From a virus, in the UHGV virus genome UHGV-0119843: 28,077 nucleotides of DNA; one strand, 5' to 3'. Shown piece by piece: positions 1 through 12,995 of this stretch. Numbering within the stretch: position 1 is the stretch's first letter; the number at the start of each line of letters is the position of its first letter. The notes beneath the pieces were generated by a model. It saw only the letters and a list, made by a program, of their open reading frames with translations, was not told the DNA's origin and searched no databases. The translations under genes were made by a program, and so were the position numbers.

Positions 1-98
1 CCTAGCTATGATATGCTTGTCGAATGATATTCGTTCCTCTACATAATCCTGCGCGACCTTATGATTTCACGAATTTTTTGTTTAATGGGACCAACAGC

Positions 99-953
99 AT
101 GAAGATTATCACATTGTTTTTCCTACTTTTATTTTCATTTACTTCATCAAATGCTAAGGAGGTTCGCAATATGATAATAATTTGCTGGGGTGACTCATTA
201 ACGTATGGGGTTGGTTCACAAAGTGGCAACAGCTATCCTGATCTTCTCAGAAAAAATGGTTACGACGTGATAAAAAAGGGGTATCCCGGACAATCTTCAA
301 GCGATATAGCGATGAGGCAAGGGGGCTATTCTCCAATAATCAAAACATTACTTATATCGACTGGCGTTTATAAAGTTACATCTATGGAGCCATCAGGTGA
401 CTTCCGTAAATATAAAGAGATGAGTTTCTATGGGACATTGGAAGGAAAGCCTGTCATCCTATCTCGAGGAGTCGATGGGTCATGGTCAGTTAACTCCTCG
501 ACAGATATAAACTGTGGAAGTGGATGCCGATTTATTACAAAAGAGGGTTCAGAGGCTAAGGATGCTGTAAACATTATTTGGGTTGGCAGAAATAATAATC
601 TCGCATTTCCTCGGTTCGCCGAGAGAGATATTGATTTGATTGTAACTTCTCTTCCCAGAGGGAATAGATTCATTATCGTCGGAATAACGCCATCAAGAAC
701 TGACTCAGAAGAAAACATTAAGGCAATAAAAACTATTAATTCCAGACTAAGCATGCGTTATGGGTCAAGATTCATCGATATGTGGCGTATTCTTAGCTCC
801 GAAGGTATCAAACTTGCAGGAATTTCCCCTTCTCAAGATGACAAAGATGCGTCATCAAATGGGTTAATTCCCCCATCTTTATACAGTGATGGGATACATT
901 TTAATGACAATGGGTATAAAGCAATATCTCTGATTATAGAAAGATATATTTAA
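99..953 (+). CDS. Secreted SGNH/GDSL-family hydrolase (esterase/lipase-like), probable prophage cargo gene
   Basis: GDSL block I motif CWGDSLTYG near N-terminus, GRNNN block and C-terminal DGIHFN (Dxx H block V); signal-peptide-like MKIITLFFLLLFSFTSSNA from ATG 99; alternative ATG 171 preceded by AAGGAGG (156-162); visibly AT-rich relative to neighbouring phage genes. Confidence 0.6.
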   Translation: MKIITLFFLLLFSFTSSNAKEVRNMIIICWGDSLTYGVGSQSGNSYPDLLRKNGYDVIKKGYPGQSSSDIAMRQGGYSPIIKTLLISTGVYKVTSMEPSGDFRKYKEMSFYGTLEGKPVILSRGVDGSWSVNSSTDINCGSGCRFITKEGSEAKDAVNIIWVGRNNNLAFPRFAERDIDLIVTSLPRGNRFIIVGITPSRTDSEENIKAIKTINSRLSMRYGSRFIDMWRILSSEGIKLAGISPSQDDKDASSNGLIPPSLYSDGIHFNDNGYKAISLIIERYI

Positions 954-959
954 CAAAAA

Positions 960-975
960 GGGCGGAATACCGCCC
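960..975 (-). terminator. Intrinsic terminator hairpin (GGGCGG-AATA-CCGCCC) between convergent GDSL gene and tailspike; T-run on minus strand
   Basis: Perfect 6-bp GC stem 960-965/970-975 flanked by A-run 954-959 on plus strand (U-run for the minus-strand tailspike transcript). Confidence 0.55.
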
Positions 976-979
976 ATCA

Positions 980-3193
980 TTAAAGAATGCTTGTAATTAC
1001 TCCAGATATAGAGAATTTAGTAGTTTGCCCGCCCGCGTCCTCGCCGCGGCATGTGACAGATGCCCTAGATGCTGTAGCGCCAAACAGTACATCAACACCT
1101 GTTGTGGCGTTGTACTGAGGGTAGCTATTCACAAGAGAAACAGTGTCAATTGATTGATTGGTCATGTCTGTAGACGCCCTTCCAACTCGCTTCAATATTC
1201 CTGGAACAACGCCTGATTGTCTACGGCAAACAATGTTTAAATCGAATATATATCCGTCATAACCAAAAGCAGATGGTACAAGAGCAAGGCGAAGTGCATC
1301 AGCTGCTGCTGCGCCGGCTGCCAGTTCGAAATATAAACCGGTAAACTCCATACGAGCAAAGTTTTTATCAGTTAATGTTGTATCGTACGTTCTTGATACA
1401 AAGAGAGATGACAATGAAAATGCACCATTTAATGTGATTTTGTTTTGCGCCCTTGTGCTTTGGTGGATCTTAATATCAGGACAGTTGTACAGGTCAAAGC
1501 TTGTATTTACTGCACCAGCCTTATCAAAGACGTTAACTTGAATGGAGAAGTTAGTGTTGTTGTCATGGATAGAAATTGTTGATGCTCTGTCAGCATAATC
1601 TACCTGAACGGTGGGATTAGATTGAATTATGCTGCAACCATGCACTTCAACGCCCATGACAAGTCCTGTTATGAAAACCTTAGATTGCTCAGCATATAAT
1701 CCGTGTATTTCAGTGCCACTACTATTACCTACATATATAATTCCAACCTCGACTGTACCTGAGAGCTCAGTTCCATACACCTGAAGATATGCTGCTCCCC
1801 CCATAGTATGGGCATAAACCAGAGCAGAGTCGAGGGTCAATGTATTTCCTGAAATTGCAGTTATGTATTTAGCTTCAAGAGTTCCACCCTCAATTGCAAT
1901 AACGTCAAATATTGAAAGCCCAGCTGCTGATGTTACTTGTATAGTGGTATCGCCAGCCGAAGCGGCAGCGGAAAGAGTTGTTCTTGGGCCATGAATAGAT
2001 ACAGAAATCTGTTTATCATTGGATCCTCCTATATATCCCTTAAGCTTGGCAGCATTGTTCCTTACCCTTACCGAATTTTTGGTAACGGTAGTTCCATTAG
2101 TTCTTCCTTGCGTGTGGCCATGCCAATTACAAACAAGCCCGCAGATATCTACATTAGAAAGCCTATGCCCTACAGATTTATATGACAGGTCAGCATAGTG
2201 AGCAGTAGATACAGTTCTTGAAGATGCTGAATCACCCTTGTTAGCTATATCACCATCGATAAGAAAACCTCCTACGCTTTGGTAGAAATGCTCACGGTCT
2301 TTCGTTCTATCCCTAGGGTCGATTCCAATGTGATGCATAGATATCCCGGTTGTTGTGGAGATCAGGGTTGTTAAGTCCCAACCGGCGCCGCCAAAGGAAA
2401 AGTAGCGCTTATCAACATCGAGGGTAAATGCACCAATACTATACTTCCCTGCCGGGAATGACAGACTACGTACATTTTCCTGCGCACGAGCAACGCGGTT
2501 CCCCTCATCAACTGCAGCTACGTTTTCAACATCAGTGCCGCCGAACTCGAATGATGCATAGTTCATGTCAGGGAAACATACCAGATTGGCGTATTTACCT
2601 GCGGGCAACGTCAGGCTAAAAGTATTCAGATCCTGATTGGAGGAAATAACCCATTCTGATACGTTTTTTACTCCTTTCCCGTTCACGTACGTTCTGACGT
2701 GCATTCCATCTGGTACGCCACTAAAGTCTGTTTCCAGTAACTGTGTTACAGTTTCTATAGTGTAAATACGTCGAGACAAGGCGTTAGCAACGGTAGCGTC
2801 TAATGGGTCACCAACAAGAATTGATCCTGTACTCTCTCCGAGTCTTTGCTCAAGGCGATCAGGGTCATACTTCAGCACATTAGGAAAATAGAACTGCTGC
2901 GAACCATACGCATCATAAACAGCCATAGAATGGCCTTGCACGGTAACGAATTTGGCAATCTGTCCGTTATGTACCGGATATCCAGCAGCGTTAATGATTA
3001 TTGGTTGCGAAACAGGGACGTGAGAACCGTCTTCGTTCTCTACATAAACCTGAATCTGGTTTTCAGGATTTACTGGGTCAGTGTCAATTTTTCCGATATA
3101 AATTTTGCCATTGGCTACGGCTTTAAAAGAACGCGCCATAGTGAAGAGTTGCGAAGGCATGCTTACCACAACATTGGCTGTAATGTCTGTCAT
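980..3193 (-). CDS. Tailspike protein (P22 gene 9 family) with conserved N-terminal head-binding domain and divergent receptor-binding domain
   Basis: 737-aa ORF; N-terminal ~110 aa ([11 protein letters not shown]...[31 protein letters not shown]...[15 protein letters not shown]...NVLKYDPD) matches the P22 tailspike head-binding domain from memory; remainder not P22-like; ATG at 3193 with GGAG upstream. Confidence 0.9.
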
Positions 3194-3250
3194 TTAATTT
3201 GCTCCAGATACAAGGAATCGCCGCAGCGTGGCCACGGTGAATTTTGGGCA

Positions 3251-3275
3251 TAAAAAAACCCAGCCGAAGCTGGGT
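3251..3275 (-). terminator. Rho-independent terminator downstream of ant
   Basis: Hairpin ACCCAGC-CGAA-GCTGGGT (3258-3275) followed on the minus strand by a 7-nt U-run (plus-strand A-run 3252-3258). Confidence 0.6.
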
Positions 3276-3293
3276 CGTTGCGTTGGTTATCTG

Positions 3294-4172
3294 TCAGTAG
3301 TTATGTACTGAAGGAGGTAATTCTTTATTCTTAAGTCTCATCCATGCGGAAAGATTCGTTGGTCCGTCTGGCTCATTGATATCAACATCTCGTGTGTGGT
3401 TTATTAAAACGTCTCTCGCCATTCCAATAACATACGAGAACTCATGACCGTAGTCGTAGCATCTGCCGGAATAGTTCGATTGAATTTGTTTTAATGCCGG
3501 ATACAGTTCGCTGAATAATGCCTGTGAACGGTTAGCATAATCCCATAGCCATACAAGGCTGTTTGCTTCTTTTGCAGAAAGCTCGTTGGTTTTCTTCTCT
3601 TGTTTGCCAATGAACTCACCTTCAAGCACTACCCTGTGGATGTACTCTACGGCCAGCGGGATTTGTTCAATTGAAAGTTCATCAATGCTGTCAATACCAA
3701 AACGCTGATGAACCATATTGTATGCATCGTCATAGCGAAGTCCTTTCTTTCCTACCAGCATGTTTACTGCATCGCGTAGCGGTGTTCTTTCCTCAACAGT
3801 GGTTTTCTTTCCTTTTACATACTCGCCATGTTTGCGAATTGAAGGCAGAACTTCTGCTGTTACCCACTTGCGGAATTTGTGCGGGACTGAACCTTTATTG
3901 ACTGCATCGCGGCAGCGCAGAACCAATGTATACATACCTGATTCGCTCACAATGCTTAGATTCTGCTCACCACCAAGGGTGTAACTTAAAGTTACTCCCT
4001 TTTCATCGTCATCAAGTGCAGTAAGCGCCTTGCGTGAGTTAGTCAAATCTAAAGCATCACAAACATCTTTAGCTACAAACCACGGCTCACCGCACTTGTT
4101 GATGACGCGGATTTCACTGTCGCCGAATTTGAAGATGGTGAAATCGTTTTGTGCCTTTGCTATACTTTTCAT
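3294..4172 (-). CDS. ant: Antirepressor Ant (BRO-N domain N-terminus)
   Basis: 292-aa ORF directly downstream of arc on the same strand; N-terminus contains the BRO-N/AntA hallmark ...[16 protein letters not shown]...; position matches P22 immI arc-ant operon. Confidence 0.8.
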
Positions 4173-4760: not shown

Positions 4761-5180
4761 TTAGTCTTGCTTTGTTGATGGTATAAGAGATGCGTTTGCC
4801 TCTTTTGGCTTCAAGGTATACATCCCACCATTAAAAGGATCTACAGCAAGCCAACCAATTAACCCACCAAACACAAGGTTTCCACCAATATACCAACCAT
4901 TAGCATTGGCTTTGATTGGCAGGGTAACTGGTTCGTACCCATCCTTTTCCATAGTGATCTGGTAGCTCTTTTTGCCAAAATAACTACCATCTGACTTGGC
5001 AAGAGTTACTCCTTGCGGGGTCTTGCCTTGCGCAACAATCACGCCTGATTCGTCTTTTACTTTAAAGCTCGCACCGGAAGGATTGCTGTTCACTTGCACG
5101 AGCTGTGTTTCGTCACCAACAATAGTTGCGCACCCAGATAACAATATAGCGCCAGCAACAACGCCGATAATCCTCTTCAT
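4761..5180 (-). CDS. Lipoprotein with PEGA-like beta domain and C-terminal glycine-rich hydrophobic segment; occupies the sieA position (candidate superinfection-exclusion/cargo protein)
   Basis: Signal peptide plus lipobox MKRIIGVVAGAILLSGC from ATG 5180; NPSGASF...GKTPQG...EKDGYEP pattern resembles PEGA domains; GWYIGGNLVFGGLIGWL glycine-zipper-like tail; function inferred from locus only. Confidence 0.6.
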   Translation of the reverse strand: MKRIIGVVAGAILLSGCATIVGDETQLVQVNSNPSGASFKVKDESGVIVAQGKTPQGVTLAKSDGSYFGKKSYQITMEKDGYEPVTLPIKANANGWYIGGNLVFGGLIGWLAVDPFNGGMYTLKPKEANASLIPSTKQD

Positions 5181-5298
5181 ATCAATTTCCATATTTGAAA
5201 AAACCGGAAACATCCTAATGACAAACCATTCAAATGTGAAGTAGGCAAAAGATGTTTACTTTTTTCATGGTATCCTGCTCAAAACTAAGGAGGTTGGT

Positions 5299-5622
5299 GT
5301 GTATACAACAGTTATCGTGATAGCTATCGCACTCATTGTGGTTCAGTACCAACTGGCATCTTTAAAACAAAAGATATCTGACCTCAAGACTGAGAACGAA
5401 GCACTTAAAAACTCAATAAAAGATGAGAAGAACAAACTATCATTCACTATATCTGATGTTGAGCAATCCATTGAAATTATTGAGAATAATATTAACAGAC
5501 TAAAAAAAGAAGATATTCATGAAATCAATGACAATATCAAGGATTTGAAATCTTGGCTTAGGAATGTAGGACAAATCGCCACATCAACACGAGATAAGCT
5601 CAATCCATCCATGGATGATTAA
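5299..5622 (+). CDS. Small single-pass membrane protein with long coiled-coil (hypothetical; moron in the sieA-position locus)
   Basis: 107-aa ORF with GTG start 5 nt after AAGGAGG (5287-5293); N-terminal hydrophobic helix YTTVIVIAIALIVVQY then heptad-like K/E/N-rich segment; very AT-rich; stop codon abuts gp16 stop. Confidence 0.55.
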   Translation: MYTTVIVIAIALIVVQYQLASLKQKISDLKTENEALKNSIKDEKNKLSFTISDVEQSIEIIENNINRLKKEDIHEINDNIKDLKSWLRNVGQIATSTRDKLNPSMDD

Positions 5623-9018: not shown

Positions 9019-9711
9019 TTAAAACAGTGAACCAAGCAGACCAAGACCAGCACCAATACCAGCACCCCACGGAGTTGATAGCTCGAGAGCACTGGCTATG
9101 CCACCACCCAAAAGCGCACCGGATGCAGCACCACTAACCCCCTGCTGCAATGCTGACGGTCGGTTGGCGTTTGCCGCAGCCAGCGCCGCGCTTTGCTGTG
9201 AAATCTGACTCATGTTGTTGGCATATGTTTGCCCGGCGTTTGCCTGCCCCTGAAGAGCGCCAAGACCGATATTTGCCAGGTTGTTGTAATTGTTCATTTG
9301 TCCAGATAGCCATTGCTGACCAAGCGTTGGTGCGATTGTTGCTAACTGATTACTGGTTGCGGTGGAACCCAATCCACCTGTTGCTTCCGCTGCCGCCAGA
9401 CTCTGATAGCGAGCCTGACCTGCAAGGTCTTTATACTGCTGAGAGTTGTAATACTGGTTAAGTGCCTGACCTTGCCCATCCAGAGACGATAAGTTCTCGA
9501 GGCTGCCGACATACTTCTCAGCCAGAGGAGTAAACGGCTTCAGGTTATTCATGATGGTGTTTAACTGCTGATTTTGCAGGTCTGCGGCATACTTCTGAGC
9601 TTCTGCGGCATACTTTGCACTTTTATCAGAGCTGCCACCTTTCCCGCCTTTTTCAGGGCAATAAGGTTCCTCGCCGCGCAGTTTGCTGCCCAGCTTAAAT
9701 GCATATAACAT
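9019..9711 (-). CDS. Ejection protein gp7 (P22 gene 7 family)
   Basis: 230-aa ORF starting MLYAFKLGSKLRGEEPYCPEKGGKGGS, matches P22 gp7 N-terminus as recalled; size matches. Confidence 0.85.
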   Translation of the reverse strand: MLYAFKLGSKLRGEEPYCPEKGGKGGSSDKSAKYAAEAQKYAADLQNQQLNTIMNNLKPFTPLAEKYVGSLENLSSLDGQGQALNQYYNSQQYKDLAGQARYQSLAAAEATGGLGSTATSNQLATIAPTLGQQWLSGQMNNYNNLANIGLGALQGQANAGQTYANNMSQISQQSAALAAANANRPSALQQGVSGAASGALLGGGIASALELSTPWGAGIGAGLGLLGSLF

Positions 9712-9713
9712 GG

Positions 9714-10169
9714 CTATCCCCCGTGATTCAGGAAGTCGATTAGTTCTTCGCGTGTGGCGCTGTAAAACGTCACGTCATCCACGCCTTTGAAGTATTTCTT
9801 GATGGTTCCTACACGATTAAGGCCAATCATTGCGCAGTACATCTGCCCGTGGCGGAATTTGCGTGCAGCGAACGATGTGACACACTGAACAGTGGTGTTA
9901 GTCAGAATGTATCGCCAGAACGCCAGCCCGATTTCCTTGCTGAATCCACGAACCTCTGGCAGGTACATGGCGTGGCAATCAAAGGTCAAAGGCTGAATCT
10001 CCTGATAGTAAACAATGCCGCCGAACTGCCCGTGCACGTTCACCTCAAAGTAACGGCAATCAGGTTTGTAGTCGTATCCATCACCGTTGTTGCTCCCGGC
10101 GATAATGTCAGGGTGATTTCCGACTGCTTCGATCAGGTCGATGTTTCGCGTTGGTTTGAACTGAATCAT
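9714..10169 (-). CDS. Head-tail/ejection-associated protein gp14 (P22 gene 14 family)
   Basis: 151-aa ORF between tail needle and gp7, start overlaps gp26 stop by 1 nt; synteny with P22 26-14-7. Confidence 0.8.
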   Translation of the reverse strand: MIQFKPTRNIDLIEAVGNHPDIIAGSNNGDGYDYKPDCRYFEVNVHGQFGGIVYYQEIQPLTFDCHAMYLPEVRGFSKEIGLAFWRYILTNTTVQCVTSFAARKFRHGQMYCAMIGLNRVGTIKKYFKGVDDVTFYSATREELIDFLNHGG

Positions 10170-11017
10170 TACTGCTCCGCGATTATCTTGATGGTTGTGG
10201 CAGTAAACGCCGCACCATTCGACTGAATGGTTAACGTACTGCCATTTGTGGCAAGAAAGCCGTCTTTATCCACGCTGAAGAATGTAGCTAACAGGATGTT
10301 GTCGGTTGTTGTCGCCGCATTACGACTGCTGACCAGCGTATCAGGAACAGAGCCGGAAAAGGTTAGCTGCATTGACCTGTTGGCGGTTCCGCTGGGCCAC
10401 GTCCCGACGATCGACAGCTTGAAGAACAAGGTTTTGTTCTCGTTGAACACAACCATCTTGTTGTTAACAGTGTCGAAGAATGGTGCCAACGTCCCGGATG
10501 ACGGCGTGAGCGTTTTCAGCAGGCTAACAAGGTTGGTCGGCGCTGTCGGGATGGTTACAGATACGCCAGAGTAAACAACCTCTGACTTCTTGCGAGTAGT
10601 GGCATACTCCAGAGCATCGATGCGCGTTTCATGGTCTGAAACCTGCGATTCCAGCGACTGAACTCTGGTATCAAGCGACGCAATATCGCTTTCATTCTGA
10701 GCTATTCGTGTTTCATGTTCCTGAAGAGTTGATTCTGCCTGGCTGATTCGCTCCTCATGATTAACAAGCGTTTCTTCCGCAGCAGAAATTCGCTGCTCAT
10801 GGTCAGCGAGAATCACATCCTGCTCATCGTTCCTGACCTGTGCATCATAAGCGCCCTGTCCGGCCTCGTTGGCCTTGTTAGCCACGTTACCAACATCAGT
10901 ACCCTGTGCGATAACGTACAGCAGATATGACTGCGAGAAGATATTGCGTGGAAGGATTGATGTATCGAGCCGCGTCGCCTGGATAGTTACTGGCACGTTG
11001 AGATTGGGATCAGCCAT
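10169..11017 (-). CDS. Tail needle protein gp26 with extended C-terminal knob domain
   Basis: N-terminus [65 protein letters not shown] matches P22 gp26; heptad-rich helical core; 282 aa versus 233 aa in P22, with extra C-terminal beta-rich domain as in Sf6-type needles. Confidence 0.9.
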
Positions 11018-11555
11018 TCACATGCCTCCATGTCTTCCCTTTTTTAATGGCGTGTATGGCCTGAACAGTCACATTATATCTTGCAGCTAACTCGCTAATT
11101 GGCGTAATCAAATCATTTTTTATGACCAGCACTATATCTTCATTTAATTTGGACGATGGATGTTCAGAACCCACATAATGAGGTATTTTCACCCTACCGC
11201 TTCTAGAGCAATGCTGCATGTTTTCATGTTGCGTACACCATTCAAGATTTTCTACATTATTATTTTGATTATTATTATCTATATGGTTGATGAATGGTTT
11301 AGATTCTTTGTTTTCAATAAATGCCTCAGCAACAATTCGATGTATTTTTTTTGGTTTAACCTCTCCATCCTTACAGAGACCAACAAATAGATATCCGCCC
11401 CCATCCTTTGCTGGCTTCAGCCATCTACCCTTCATTAATCGAGTAGCCCCATGGCATGTATTTATTATCCTTGAGTGAGAGTAAACTCTACCATCACGAG
11501 TTACCGCATAAAGCCCCTCATAACCAACTACATCTCTAATATCTTCACTTAACAT
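11010..11555 (-). CDS. Free-standing HNH homing endonuclease (NUMOD4-like N-terminus + HNH_3-like domain) inserted between gp10 and gp26
   Basis: N-terminal [16 protein letters not shown] (NUMOD4-like) and [11 protein letters not shown]...INHIDNN...[10 protein letters not shown] (HNH); AAGGAG 5 nt upstream of ATG 11555; strongly AT-rich; 3' end overlaps gp26 start by 8 nt. Confidence 0.75.
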
Positions 11556-11576: not shown

Positions 11577-12995
11577 TTATGTTGTACGAATAGACAGTCC
11601 GGATAATGTAACCGGGCCTTTTGCAATAACTCTGAATTTAAAACCGATGAGACGTCTAACTCTTCCAATCCTGCGCCATAAGACTCGATTGTCATATACA
11701 AATGGAGATTGCAATACGACCATTTGTTCCCTGCCGTAATTTATTCCATCTGTTGTTGCTGATATAAATATTTTATCTATTCTATCACACACGCCGCCTG
11801 ATGTTTCTAATTCAAGGTCATTAATAATGACATTATCTGCCTTTATTAATGGTGAAAATAAAATATGTTCCTGTTGAAGCCCATACTGGCTGCTGATATC
11901 GAACTGCAATTTCCCGGTCACGGACTCCAGCTTATCGCCGCACGTTATCTGATTGCCTTCGTAAATGAAGTCGATAGCGCGGTACACATCGTTATACAGG
12001 CCAGTTTTCAACACACACCATTGCGGACCATTGGCGCTTGAAGATGCGTCGTACACGAGAACATGGCGCGGAAGGTGGATAATCAGCAACTCATGCGCAT
12101 CAAATCGCAGAGACTCCATCACGCCATCAGCCAGTTCATCAGCAGTGTAGGAGCGTAGTATTTTCTCAATGCTCGCGCTGGCGATTGGTGATACCTGACC
12201 GGAGCCGATGATGTATACAGACGGCGCACCCGTTGCCGGATTGCTGATGAACGCATACGAATCAGCAAACGGCGTTTTGCAGTAAGTCCCGGCGATGCCT
12301 TTTTGCACCATCAGCGATGGCTGTGCGACATACAACGCGGCACCAACAGTGGTTGCACCAGTGAGGGAAAAATATTCAATCGTCGATGAACCAAAGCAGA
12401 CGATGAAGTCTCGCCATGTTCCTATGCCGATGATGCCGTCAGGCTGCGATTCTGCGCGATATTGTGCGCTGTAACGGTCAGGATGCGATTCGTCTTCAAG
12501 GTCAGTGATAAACCATGAATCAGTGCCGTCTTTTGACCACGCATAACGCCCACGTAAGCGCGTAATGTCGCGGACTGAGCCTAACTCATACTGCGTGAAT
12601 CCGCTGTCTGTAGGCCAGTTTGAGACGGTTTTAATCGTGCCATCATAGCGATACTCGACCAGCTGACCATTAACGCCTACCGCCTGAGATGTTCGACCAT
12701 GCGCCATTGATACGCGACCACTTCCGGCAACATCACCGACCTCGCTTTCTCCCTTATACAACTTGCCACCGCAAACGCGATAAACAGCATTCTGCGCCAT
12801 GTTGTACTCGACACCGCGCGATACACCATTCACATCAGAACGTTTGGCAATGCCCGGGAATGAGCGAAGATATCCGCTGCTGTTGAGTATTTCTTTGGGT
12901 GTAGCCAGCATATTCACTGGCAGATAGTCGATGTAGTCGGCGTTTCGAAAGTCTTTGCCGACACCTTTCATAAGCGGAAGTTGCTGAATCGGCAT
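11577..12995 (-). CDS. Tail accessory protein gp10 (P22 gene 10 family)
   Basis: 472-aa ORF (same length as P22 gp10), ATG overlaps gp4 stop by 1 nt; conserved 4-10-26 order. Confidence 0.9.
   Translation of the reverse strand: MPIQQLPLMKGVGKDFRNADYIDYLPVNMLATPKEILNSSGYLRSFPGIAKRSDVNGVSRGVEYNMAQNAVYRVCGGKLYKGESEVGDVAGSGRVSMAHGRTSQAVGVNGQLVEYRYDGTIKTVSNWPTDSGFTQYELGSVRDITRLRGRYAWSKDGTDSWFITDLEDESHPDRYSAQYRAESQPDGIIGIGTWRDFIVCFGSSTIEYFSLTGATTVGAALYVAQPSLMVQKGIAGTYCKTPFADSYAFISNPATGAPSVYIIGSGQVSPIASASIEKILRSYTADELADGVMESLRFDAHELLIIHLPRHVLVYDASSSANGPQWCVLKTGLYNDVYRAIDFIYEGNQITCGDKLESVTGKLQFDISSQYGLQQEHILFSPLIKADNVIINDLELETSGGVCDRIDKIFISATTDGINYGREQMVVLQSPFVYDNRVLWRRIGRVRRLIGFKFRVIAKGPVTLSGLSIRTT

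Follow-up and report, generated by a model that had tools for sequence, protein, structure and literature searches.

We analysed UHGV-0119843, a viral DNA sequence of 28,077 nt (the window, meaning this whole stretch), and concentrated on the gene at its beginning, which encodes a predicted exported hydrolase of the SGNH/GDSL family. This SGNH gene converges with a gene for a P22-type tailspike, the two stop codons lying 26 nt apart. The remainder of the window is a P22-like late region with genes for gp16, gp20, gp7, gp14, the tail needle, gp10, gp4, coat, portal and terminase. The initial annotation of the window had described an AT-rich gene for a secreted SGNH/GDSL hydrolase, convergent with the tailspike gene and contained in an open reading frame (ORF) at 24–953 (+). 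When the sequence was re-read, this ORF, the possible starts at ATG 99 and ATG 171, the AAGGAGG element, and the motifs CWGDSLTYG (nt 183–209) and DGIHFN (nt 888–905) were all present. The GC content is 0.38–0.40 over window 1–1000 and ~0.50 over most of the phage, and the tailspike gene (980–3193, minus strand) indeed opposes the SGNH gene (99–953, plus strand). The features of the locus are collected in Table 1.

Table 1. Coordinates of the SGNH gene, its sequence features and its immediate neighbours in the window.
Feature	Position	Strand	Details
UmuD-like (Peptidase_S24) gene, decayed, tail only	1..54	-	L002/L003 alignment and Pfam
Candidate sigma-70 promoter, TCTACA-16 nt-TATGAT	38..65	+	Consensus scan; 34 nt upstream of ATG 99; corresponds to L002 1735-1762
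SGNH/GDSL hydrolase gene	99..953	+	284 aa; stop codon 951-953; actual coding part of ORF 24..953
Predicted Sec signal peptide, MKIITLFFLLLFSFTSSNA	99..155	+	Possible cleavage after S-N-A (residue 19), then KE
Internal Shine-Dalgarno sequence AAGGAGG (156-162) and ATG 171 (Met25)	156..173	+	8-nt spacing; possible second start
SGNH block I, WGDSLT	186..203	+	Nucleophile Ser33 at 195-197
Block II region, GYPGQSS	279..299	+	Gly64 (oxyanion-hole glycine) at 288-290
Beta-rich insertion in SGNH core	336..539	+	~Residues 80-147 (~70 residues); includes Cys139 and Cys143
Block III, GRNN	585..596	+	Gly163, Asn165, Asn166; 13-homologue alignment
Block V, DGIH	888..899	+	Asp264, His267; His267 codon 897-899
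GC-rich hairpin, GGGCGGAATACCGCCC	960..975	.	GGGCGG-AATA-CCGCCC between the convergent genes; terminator scan, T-run follows on minus strand
Tailspike gene	980..3193	-	737 aa; P22-type head-binding domain (aa 1-113) and receptor-binding domain; Pfam

The assignment to the SGNH/GDSL hydrolases was borne out by profile, motifs and predicted fold. The protein scored 36.5 bits (E 8.9e-9) against Pfam PF13472, Lipase_GDSL_2, and because this exceeds the curated gathering cut-off of 32.9 the motifs are not a chance occurrence; PF00657 fell just under its cut-off (22.6 versus 23.6). In an alignment of 13 homologues W30, G31, D32, S33, L34 and T35 of block I are invariant, as are G61, G64 and Q65 in the block II region (which aligns with the GDSL protein 4rsh), G163, R164 and N166 of block III, and D264 of block V; N165 is conserved in at least 90% of the sequences. 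The AlphaFold (AF2) model has a predicted local distance difference test score (pLDDT) of 87.4 and a predicted template-modelling score of 0.82, and it shows the three-layer alpha/beta/alpha fold of SGNH proteins. The whole 284-residue product is one SGNH domain with a signal peptide and contains no particle-binding domain. Together, the conserved residues indicate a canonical SGNH enzyme in which the block II Gly and the block III Asn would form the oxyanion hole. A PDB sequence search returned only marginal matches (E 0.09), the PADLOC defence models gave no match, and the only database labels carried by the protein are 'SGNH/GDSL hydrolase family protein' and the JGI label 'lysophospholipase L1-like esterase'.

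The catalytic histidine, His267, is present in 11 of the 13 aligned sequences and replaced by Asn in the remaining two, P0007 and P0008. In these Lelliottia-type proteins block V reads FDNVNFND or FDKVNFND, and the Ser, the Asp and the rest of the fold are kept. The change from His to Asn is no sequencing error, since the P0007 cluster has 12 members. P0007 and P0008 could be binding proteins without activity, or a different base could stand in for the His.

Read from ATG 99, the protein begins with the signal-peptide-like N-terminus that had been proposed for it. Its hydrophobicity is high (Kyte-Doolittle mean 2.82 over a 12-mer), S-N-A at residue 19 is a small-x-small site typical of Sec signals, and residues 1–21 are disordered in the AlphaFold model, with pLDDT below 50. 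A hydrophobic N-terminal segment is kept in all 11 full-length relatives, down to 42% identity, and in every one of them it ends 8–12 residues before WGDS. Between the window and L003, a relative with 82% DNA identity, codons 1–24 differ by five synonymous and seven non-synonymous changes, and both the frame and the hydrophobicity are kept.

Translation from ATG 171 would instead yield a 260-residue form without the signal peptide. The perfect AAGGAGG in front of this codon is real, as the initial annotation stated, and is the only site resembling a Shine-Dalgarno sequence in window 1–1000. AAGGAG and Met25 are retained in L003 and L017, and gene callers chose the equivalent of ATG 171 as the start of P0002 and P0003. 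The combination of an internal Met25 and a strong Shine-Dalgarno sequence is restricted, however, to the E. coli clade (the window, L002, L003 and L017), and position 25 is not Met in relatives with identities of up to 64%. The idea that AAG-GAG are unusual codons selected to make a Shine-Dalgarno sequence found no support, as AAG accounts for 6 of 17 Lys codons and GAG for 6 of 11 Glu codons. Since the hydrophobic N-terminus occurs throughout the family and Met25 only in the E. coli clade, the exported form appears to be the conserved product of the gene. Cys139 (513–515) and Cys143 (525–527) are invariant in the stand-alone proteins and missing from all four aligned tailspike or tail-fibre domains. 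A disulfide formed only in the exported protein would explain this distribution, and the pair suggests folding in the periplasm.

The ORF continues upstream of ATG 99 as far as ATG 24, which we rejected as the start of the gene: window 1–54 is the end of a decayed minus-strand gene, and this UmuD-like remnant makes the extension spurious. Window position 1 corresponds to L002 position 1698, and L002 1337–1751 is 65% identical to the intact S24 gene of L003. The latter encodes 129 residues (L003 9398–9787, minus strand; Pfam Peptidase_S24, E 1.2e-9) and is preceded, at about L003 9806–9821, by CTGTATATACATACAG, which fits the consensus of a LexA (SOS) box. The DNA of the window and that of L003 become homologous at window 96, three nucleotides before ATG 99, and the 98 nt 5' of ATG 99 cannot be aligned to L003 (22% identity). 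A search of window 1–3300 against Rfam gave no match. The UmuD-like gene is placed between the side of the attachment site (att) and integrase gene (int) and the SGNH gene; it is intact in L003 and decayed in the window and in all copies from E. coli and E. albertii, as a second cargo gene on its way to loss while the SGNH gene is retained. A metagenome contig of 21,770 bp with an identical gene (Ga0495776_065140 / IMGVR_UViG_3300045988_109032) stops exactly at window position 1, and this shared end points to an assembly that broke off at a variable junction immediately upstream of the SGNH gene.

Related genomes placed the SGNH gene inside a prophage. A 40-kb E. coli contig has genes for an integrase, a 99%-identical SGNH protein and the tailspike, in this order, and 38 contigs from E. 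coli and E. albertii encode a near-identical protein that belongs to the same 90% cluster (P0172). At loci L039 and L043 the order is yfdC, tRNA-Arg(CCT) (argW), a gene for a 385-residue integrase, the SGNH gene and, on the opposite strand, a gene for a 737-residue tailspike; the SGNH gene therefore lies ~1.8 kb inside the prophage. L002, L041 and L042 have the same order of integrase, SGNH gene and tailspike. The block formed by the SGNH and tailspike genes occupies at least five chromosomal sites, adjoining dacD–sbmC in L036, L037 and L040, the bio operon with effector genes in L035, and hscC in L038; in L003 it sits in an unrelated neighbourhood of MCP and EAL genes. The SGNH gene is thus prophage cargo. 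The initial annotation had placed it where P22-like prophages carry conversion cargo, and in L039 and L043 it does lie between att/int and the tailspike gene, transcribed towards the latter; no att site separates the two genes there.

Searches of bacterial and phage collections returned little. Megablast with window 1–1000 found no match in the phage collection or in 5,426 complete E. coli genomes, and a 'distant' blastn search with the SGNH gene showed it to be absent from the same 5,426 genomes, in which the receptor-binding domain of the tailspike had a single match over only 22% of its length. A scan of one genome per species yielded two distant matches only, in Microbacterium and Bacteroidia. 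A tblastn search of plasmids gave only matches at 28–31% identity, which are of no use for context. A possible 3' half of a tRNA at L003 9231–9275, considered as an att remnant, had no support from ARAGORN or Rfam and was not used.

The SGNH gene travels with the gene for the receptor-binding protein. Over window 1–3208 the identity to L002 is 99.1%, while elsewhere the two phages are 85–95% identical or unrelated, or the sequence is absent. Likewise, window 96–3205 is ~82% (81.9%) identical to L003, and the rest aligns at ~70%. Window 1–3208 moves as a single mosaic unit. In 10 of 10 lineages examined, spanning 41–100% identity, the SGNH gene is convergent with a tailspike or tail-fibre gene at a prophage end; the count refers to ten lineages of the stand-alone family, with the contexts of P0007, P0008 and P0009 left out. 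The context is P22-like in E. coli, E. albertii and the L003 group. It consists of siphovirus-type tail genes (tape-measure, NlpC/P60 and a large tail-tip-like protein) in L005/L006, Lelliottia, Providencia, L018 and L046, and of myovirus-type genes (Mu gp48-like baseplate, tail fibre and fibre chaperone) in the prophage in L019. These alignments and contexts suggest that the SGNH gene and the receptor-binding domain of the tailspike form a two-gene mobile cassette.

Two Providencia prophages at the same chromosomal site (L011 and L012, 8001–11854) encode an identical SGNH protein. They also have in common a 300-residue protein of phrog_18370 and receptor-binding domains that are 74% identical, and one prophage has siphovirus-type tail genes while the other is P22-like. 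The pair is a clear example of phage types exchanging a receptor cassette.

The first 113 residues of the tailspike match the P22 Head_binding domain (E 6.5e-66), its PDB matches are confined to residues 1–118, and its receptor-binding domain is 41–48% identical to tailspikes of E. coli phages. In the phage collection nothing closely matched the receptor-binding domain (residues 115–737; window 983–2851, minus strand). Its nearest counterparts were PD205, AV101 TSP4, Ro121c4YLVW (isolated on an O121 host) and ST31; AV101 TSP4 is O159-specific (PMC10791037). We rejected an origin of the SGNH gene as a copy of a domain of its own tailspike, BLASTP showing no similarity. We also rejected a tailspike pseudogene in L037 and L040, where the gene is unlisted, because the ORF is intact.

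We then compared the SGNH protein with its relatives. The best PHROG match was a tail-fibre family, phrog_11419 (2e-25, residues 26–277), which also matches long proteins strongly. The C-terminal SGNH domains of Providencia tailspikes are 34–37% identical to the SGNH protein from end to end, the beta insertion included (BLASTP 1e-40 to 1e-43), and the block I Ser motif is common to the SGNH protein and the tailspike SGNH domains. A profile search of 1.84 billion representative proteins gave E values below 1e-100 for just two clusters, both of the stand-alone type. Scores then fell to 1e-47, with 148 further representatives, of which 125 were longer than 340 residues; most of these 125 carry the SGNH domain towards the C-terminus. 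Outside its own small family, the best sequence matches of the protein are esterase-type domains of tail-fibre and tailspike proteins. The SGNH protein does not itself resemble a virion protein, being a stand-alone product of 284 residues with a predicted signal peptide, encoded on the strand opposite the late genes.

Genes that suggest acetylation are found beside several of the related SGNH genes. In Lelliottia prophages the SGNH gene stands in a row with an AT3-SGNH acyltransferase gene, whose product is a separate, complete protein, and in L005, L007 and L046 a second small exported-type GDSL protein is encoded beside it. Acetylation-type neighbours lie at 9171–11827 in L007–L010, 7781–9634 in L044, 8898–9572 in L005 and 359–1006 in L046; they are an AT3-SGNH acyltransferase (617–658 residues), a small GDSL protein (215–227 residues, phrog_14008) or both. 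The resulting multi-gene acetylation-editing clusters lie between the prophage end and the tailspike gene. The neighbouring tailspike carries a GDSL/SGNH domain for P0004, P0005 and the Providencia prophages, and none was found in the neighbouring tailspike of the window, L018, L044 or L046.

The catalytic domain of the SGNH protein is homologous to those of PHROG 11419, G7C gp63.1, the Klebsiella SGNH receptor-binding proteins and the Vi-phage esterases. The characterized members of this class of tail SGNH esterases are polysaccharide O-acetylesterases; O-acetylesterases among SGNH tail proteins include gp63.1 of G7C, two Klebsiella prophage receptor-binding proteins (PMC13123978) and PP99 (PMC6989608). 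Mutants without O-acetylation are not infected by phage G7C and are poorer hosts for the P22-like phage Hf4s (bioRxiv 10.1101/2021.06.09.447823).

Our preferred interpretation, which we favour with moderate confidence, is that the gene encodes a Sec-exported SGNH serine esterase, carried by P22-like prophages as cargo in a cassette with the tailspike gene, which acts as a conversion and exclusion factor by hydrolysing O-acetyl groups. The gene would be transcribed alone, towards the tailspike gene and outside the late operon, and so the lysogen could produce it. After export, the protein would remain soluble in the periplasm or be anchored at the outer face of the inner membrane. There the triad Ser33/Asp264/His267, with Gly64 and Asn165 or Asn166 as oxyanion hole, would hydrolyse O-acetyl esters of the surface polysaccharide that the linked tailspike recognizes. 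This polysaccharide would most probably be O-antigen under assembly on the periplasmic side, possibly the heavily O-acetylated O115-type antigen. The changed acetylation would alter the serotype of the lysogen and block adsorption of the same and related phages, and the outcome would be lysogenic conversion and superinfection exclusion. What we infer is that the protein is exported and its signal cleaved, that the lysogen expresses the gene, that the reaction is hydrolysis and not transfer, and which substrate it acts on. The initial annotation had already suggested an acetyl-esterase acting on O-antigen or another surface sugar; this remains a prediction from sequence, and it is strengthened by the linkage to the receptor gene, the homology to tailspike esterase domains and the co-occurrence with AT3-SGNH proteins.

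The O115 antigen as substrate is only a lead. The only two carriers labelled with a serotype are O115:H51 and O115:H10, and the former strain carries the same cassette at argW. PMC9912281, citing Fontana 2013, describes O-acetyl groups at several positions of Rha and GalA in the O115 O-antigen, and E. albertii includes O115-reactive types (PMC6927306, PMC11979293).

A more far-reaching version of this interpretation is one that we regard as possible rather than probable. In it, an exported esterase made by the lysogen would de-O-acetylate the cell's own O-antigen from inside, as part of a specificity-matched cassette that moves among Enterobacterales prophages of the podo-, sipho- and myovirus types; with an AT3-SGNH protein as neighbour, the pair would rewrite acetylation, taking one acetyl group off and putting another on. 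Temperate phages would then have a hitherto unrecognised route to host conversion.

Several observations weigh against the esterase interpretation. The link to O115 comes from two labelled strains only. P0007 and P0008 have no catalytic His, hence not all members of the family can be esterases. The tailspike of this phage has no SGNH domain and shows no sign of acetylation dependence. The promoter scan performed no better than chance, with 2 sites found and 3.8 expected. A second, cytoplasmic isoform from ATG 171 is possible in the E. coli clade. Finally, at least three lineages have an acetyltransferase neighbour, which fits adding or relocating acetyl groups as well as removing them.

The last point leads to an alternative that we consider unlikely: a periplasmic SGNH acetyltransferase of the PatB or OafA/OafB SGNH type that receives acetyl from an AT3 or MBOAT partner and converts the host by addition. 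The AT3 neighbours keep this alternative alive, and fold scores are no argument against it. No AT3 or MBOAT gene, however, lies alongside the SGNH gene, and no AT3 domain is fused to it, in the window or at any E. coli or E. albertii locus, and the nearby AT3 proteins elsewhere already own an SGNH domain. Moreover, neither the block II Gly nor the block III Asn is found in the O-antigen transferase domains of OafA and OafB (PMC7448272), and this atypical oxyanion hole of AT3-linked SGNH domains is not matched by the SGNH protein, in which Gly64 and Asn165/166 are conserved. The closest long relatives are virion tail proteins, which act outside the cell without an acetyl donor.

Similarly unlikely is a role in the lytic cycle, in which the cytoplasmic form from ATG 171, or protein released by lysis, would be an extracellular receptor-modifying esterase. 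It could prime neighbouring cells for the tailspike, keep progeny off debris, or serve as a second receptor-binding component of the virion. The perfect Shine-Dalgarno sequence 8 nt before ATG 171, retained in the 82% relative, is consistent with this, as are the homology to tail-fibre and tailspike esterase domains and the SGNH genes beside receptor-binding proteins in Klebsiella prophages, which have been read in the context of those proteins (PMC13123978). Against it stand the strand opposite the late operon and the position beyond the 3' end of the tailspike gene, as well as the single SGNH domain with a signal peptide and no domain for binding the particle. It is also the hydrophobic N-terminus, not Met25, that is found family-wide, and the Cys pair missing from the four aligned tail-protein domains suggests periplasmic folding.

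We give an equally low probability to a fitness or virulence function unrelated to the receptor, such as that of a lipase or lysophospholipase attacking envelope lipids in the periplasm, or of an esterase releasing acetate from host or dietary glycans in the way that NanS-p of Stx prophages acts on O-acetyl sialic acids. Fold matches to TesA, PlaA and other lipid esterases agree with such a function, as does the JGI label, and prophage-borne sialate esterases exist (PMC10462455). It would leave unexplained, however, why the gene is adjacent to and transferred with a receptor-binding gene in all ten lineages and in several phage types, and why it clusters with O-antigen-type AT3-SGNH acetyltransferases. 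In addition, Pfam gave no match to the SASA (PF03629) or DUF1737 domains of NanS-p at E up to 0.1, and NCBIfam only a sub-threshold match to PlaA (18.9 bits versus a cut-off of 450).

That the SGNH gene is a host gene just outside the prophage end, which the initial annotation had offered as an alternative, is highly improbable: the window begins only 98 nt upstream of it and cannot reveal the boundary by itself, but we rejected this origin because the gene lies between integrase and tailspike in the argW-integrated prophage of L039 and L043 and the block stands beside at least five unrelated host neighbourhoods, and its absence from the complete E. coli genomes and the one-genome-per-species collection speaks against it as well.

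The esterase interpretation can also be set beside known conversion systems. P22 carries gtrABC between att/int and the tailspike gene, and Sf6 has oac in the corresponding slot. The SGNH gene occupies the same slot, between att/int and the tailspike gene and directed towards the latter, as gtrABC of P22 and SfV/SfX, oac of Sf6 and the AT3-SGNH proteins GtrC/OafB of BTP1. Like these genes it is AT-rich, moron-like cargo whose product is predicted to work at the periplasmic face, and it too would be expected to change the receptor or serotype and to exclude related phages (PMC4413052, PMC9558356). Unlike gtrABC, oac and OafB, which add glucose or acetyl via integral membrane proteins, the SGNH gene encodes a single soluble or anchored enzyme with hydrolase motifs and no membrane donor protein. 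It would then bring about O-antigen conversion by removal of a group, not by addition. To our knowledge, the phage conversions characterized so far all add groups (glucose, acetyl), change a polymer linkage or repress a host acetylase.

Two carbohydrate esterases offer further comparison. Ape1 is a periplasmic O-acetylesterase of peptidoglycan, encoded beside the acetyltransferases PatA and PatB. It has no detectable sequence relationship to the SGNH protein, carries an added carbohydrate-binding-module-like domain and is the product of a chromosomal housekeeping gene. As far as we know, E. coli peptidoglycan is not O-acetylated, and the substrate of the SGNH protein must therefore differ from that of Ape1. 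NanS-p of Stx prophages is likewise a prophage-borne carbohydrate O-acetylesterase in E. coli (PMC10462455); it differs from the SGNH protein in belonging to the SASA/DUF1737 family, in its position downstream of stx in the late region and in its nutritional role after lysis. Our full-text literature searches found no characterized prophage-encoded exported esterase that acts as a conversion factor, and the nearest precedent is that SGNH genes sometimes adjoin genes for receptor-binding proteins in Klebsiella prophages (PMC13123978).

Other features of the window lie outside the cassette or at its centre. The hairpin between the two convergent genes is likely to be the terminator of the tailspike transcript, and possibly of both transcripts. 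A homing-endonuclease-like gene of 181 residues with HNH_3 and NUMOD4 domains (window 11010–11555, minus strand; GC 0.38–0.39) is inserted between the tail-needle gene (10169–11017) and the gp10-like gene (11577–12995); L002 lacks the insertion, and its tail-needle and gp10-like genes adjoin directly. Between mnt/arc/ant and gp16, in the immI-like region, are two small genes without family assignment. The product of one (window 4761–5213, minus strand) has 150 residues, an N-terminus of the lipoprotein type (...AILLSGCATIV) and a weak match to PEGA; that of the other (window 5299–5622, plus strand) has 107 residues, with a single hydrophobic segment at the N-terminus and a coiled coil after it. 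Either gene may have a further role in exclusion or in the envelope.

The acetylation of O-antigen governs serotype, vaccine epitopes and phage adsorption. If the esterase interpretation is true, an exported prophage enzyme that removes acetyl groups would be a new tool among phage conversions. Strict pairing with the receptor gene would give a simple genomic rule for finding prophage genes that edit receptors, and it would help to predict the surface modification on which a tailspike depends. Should the function prove to be otherwise, the SGNH gene would still be a well-defined, rare accessory gene that has so far carried generic annotation only.

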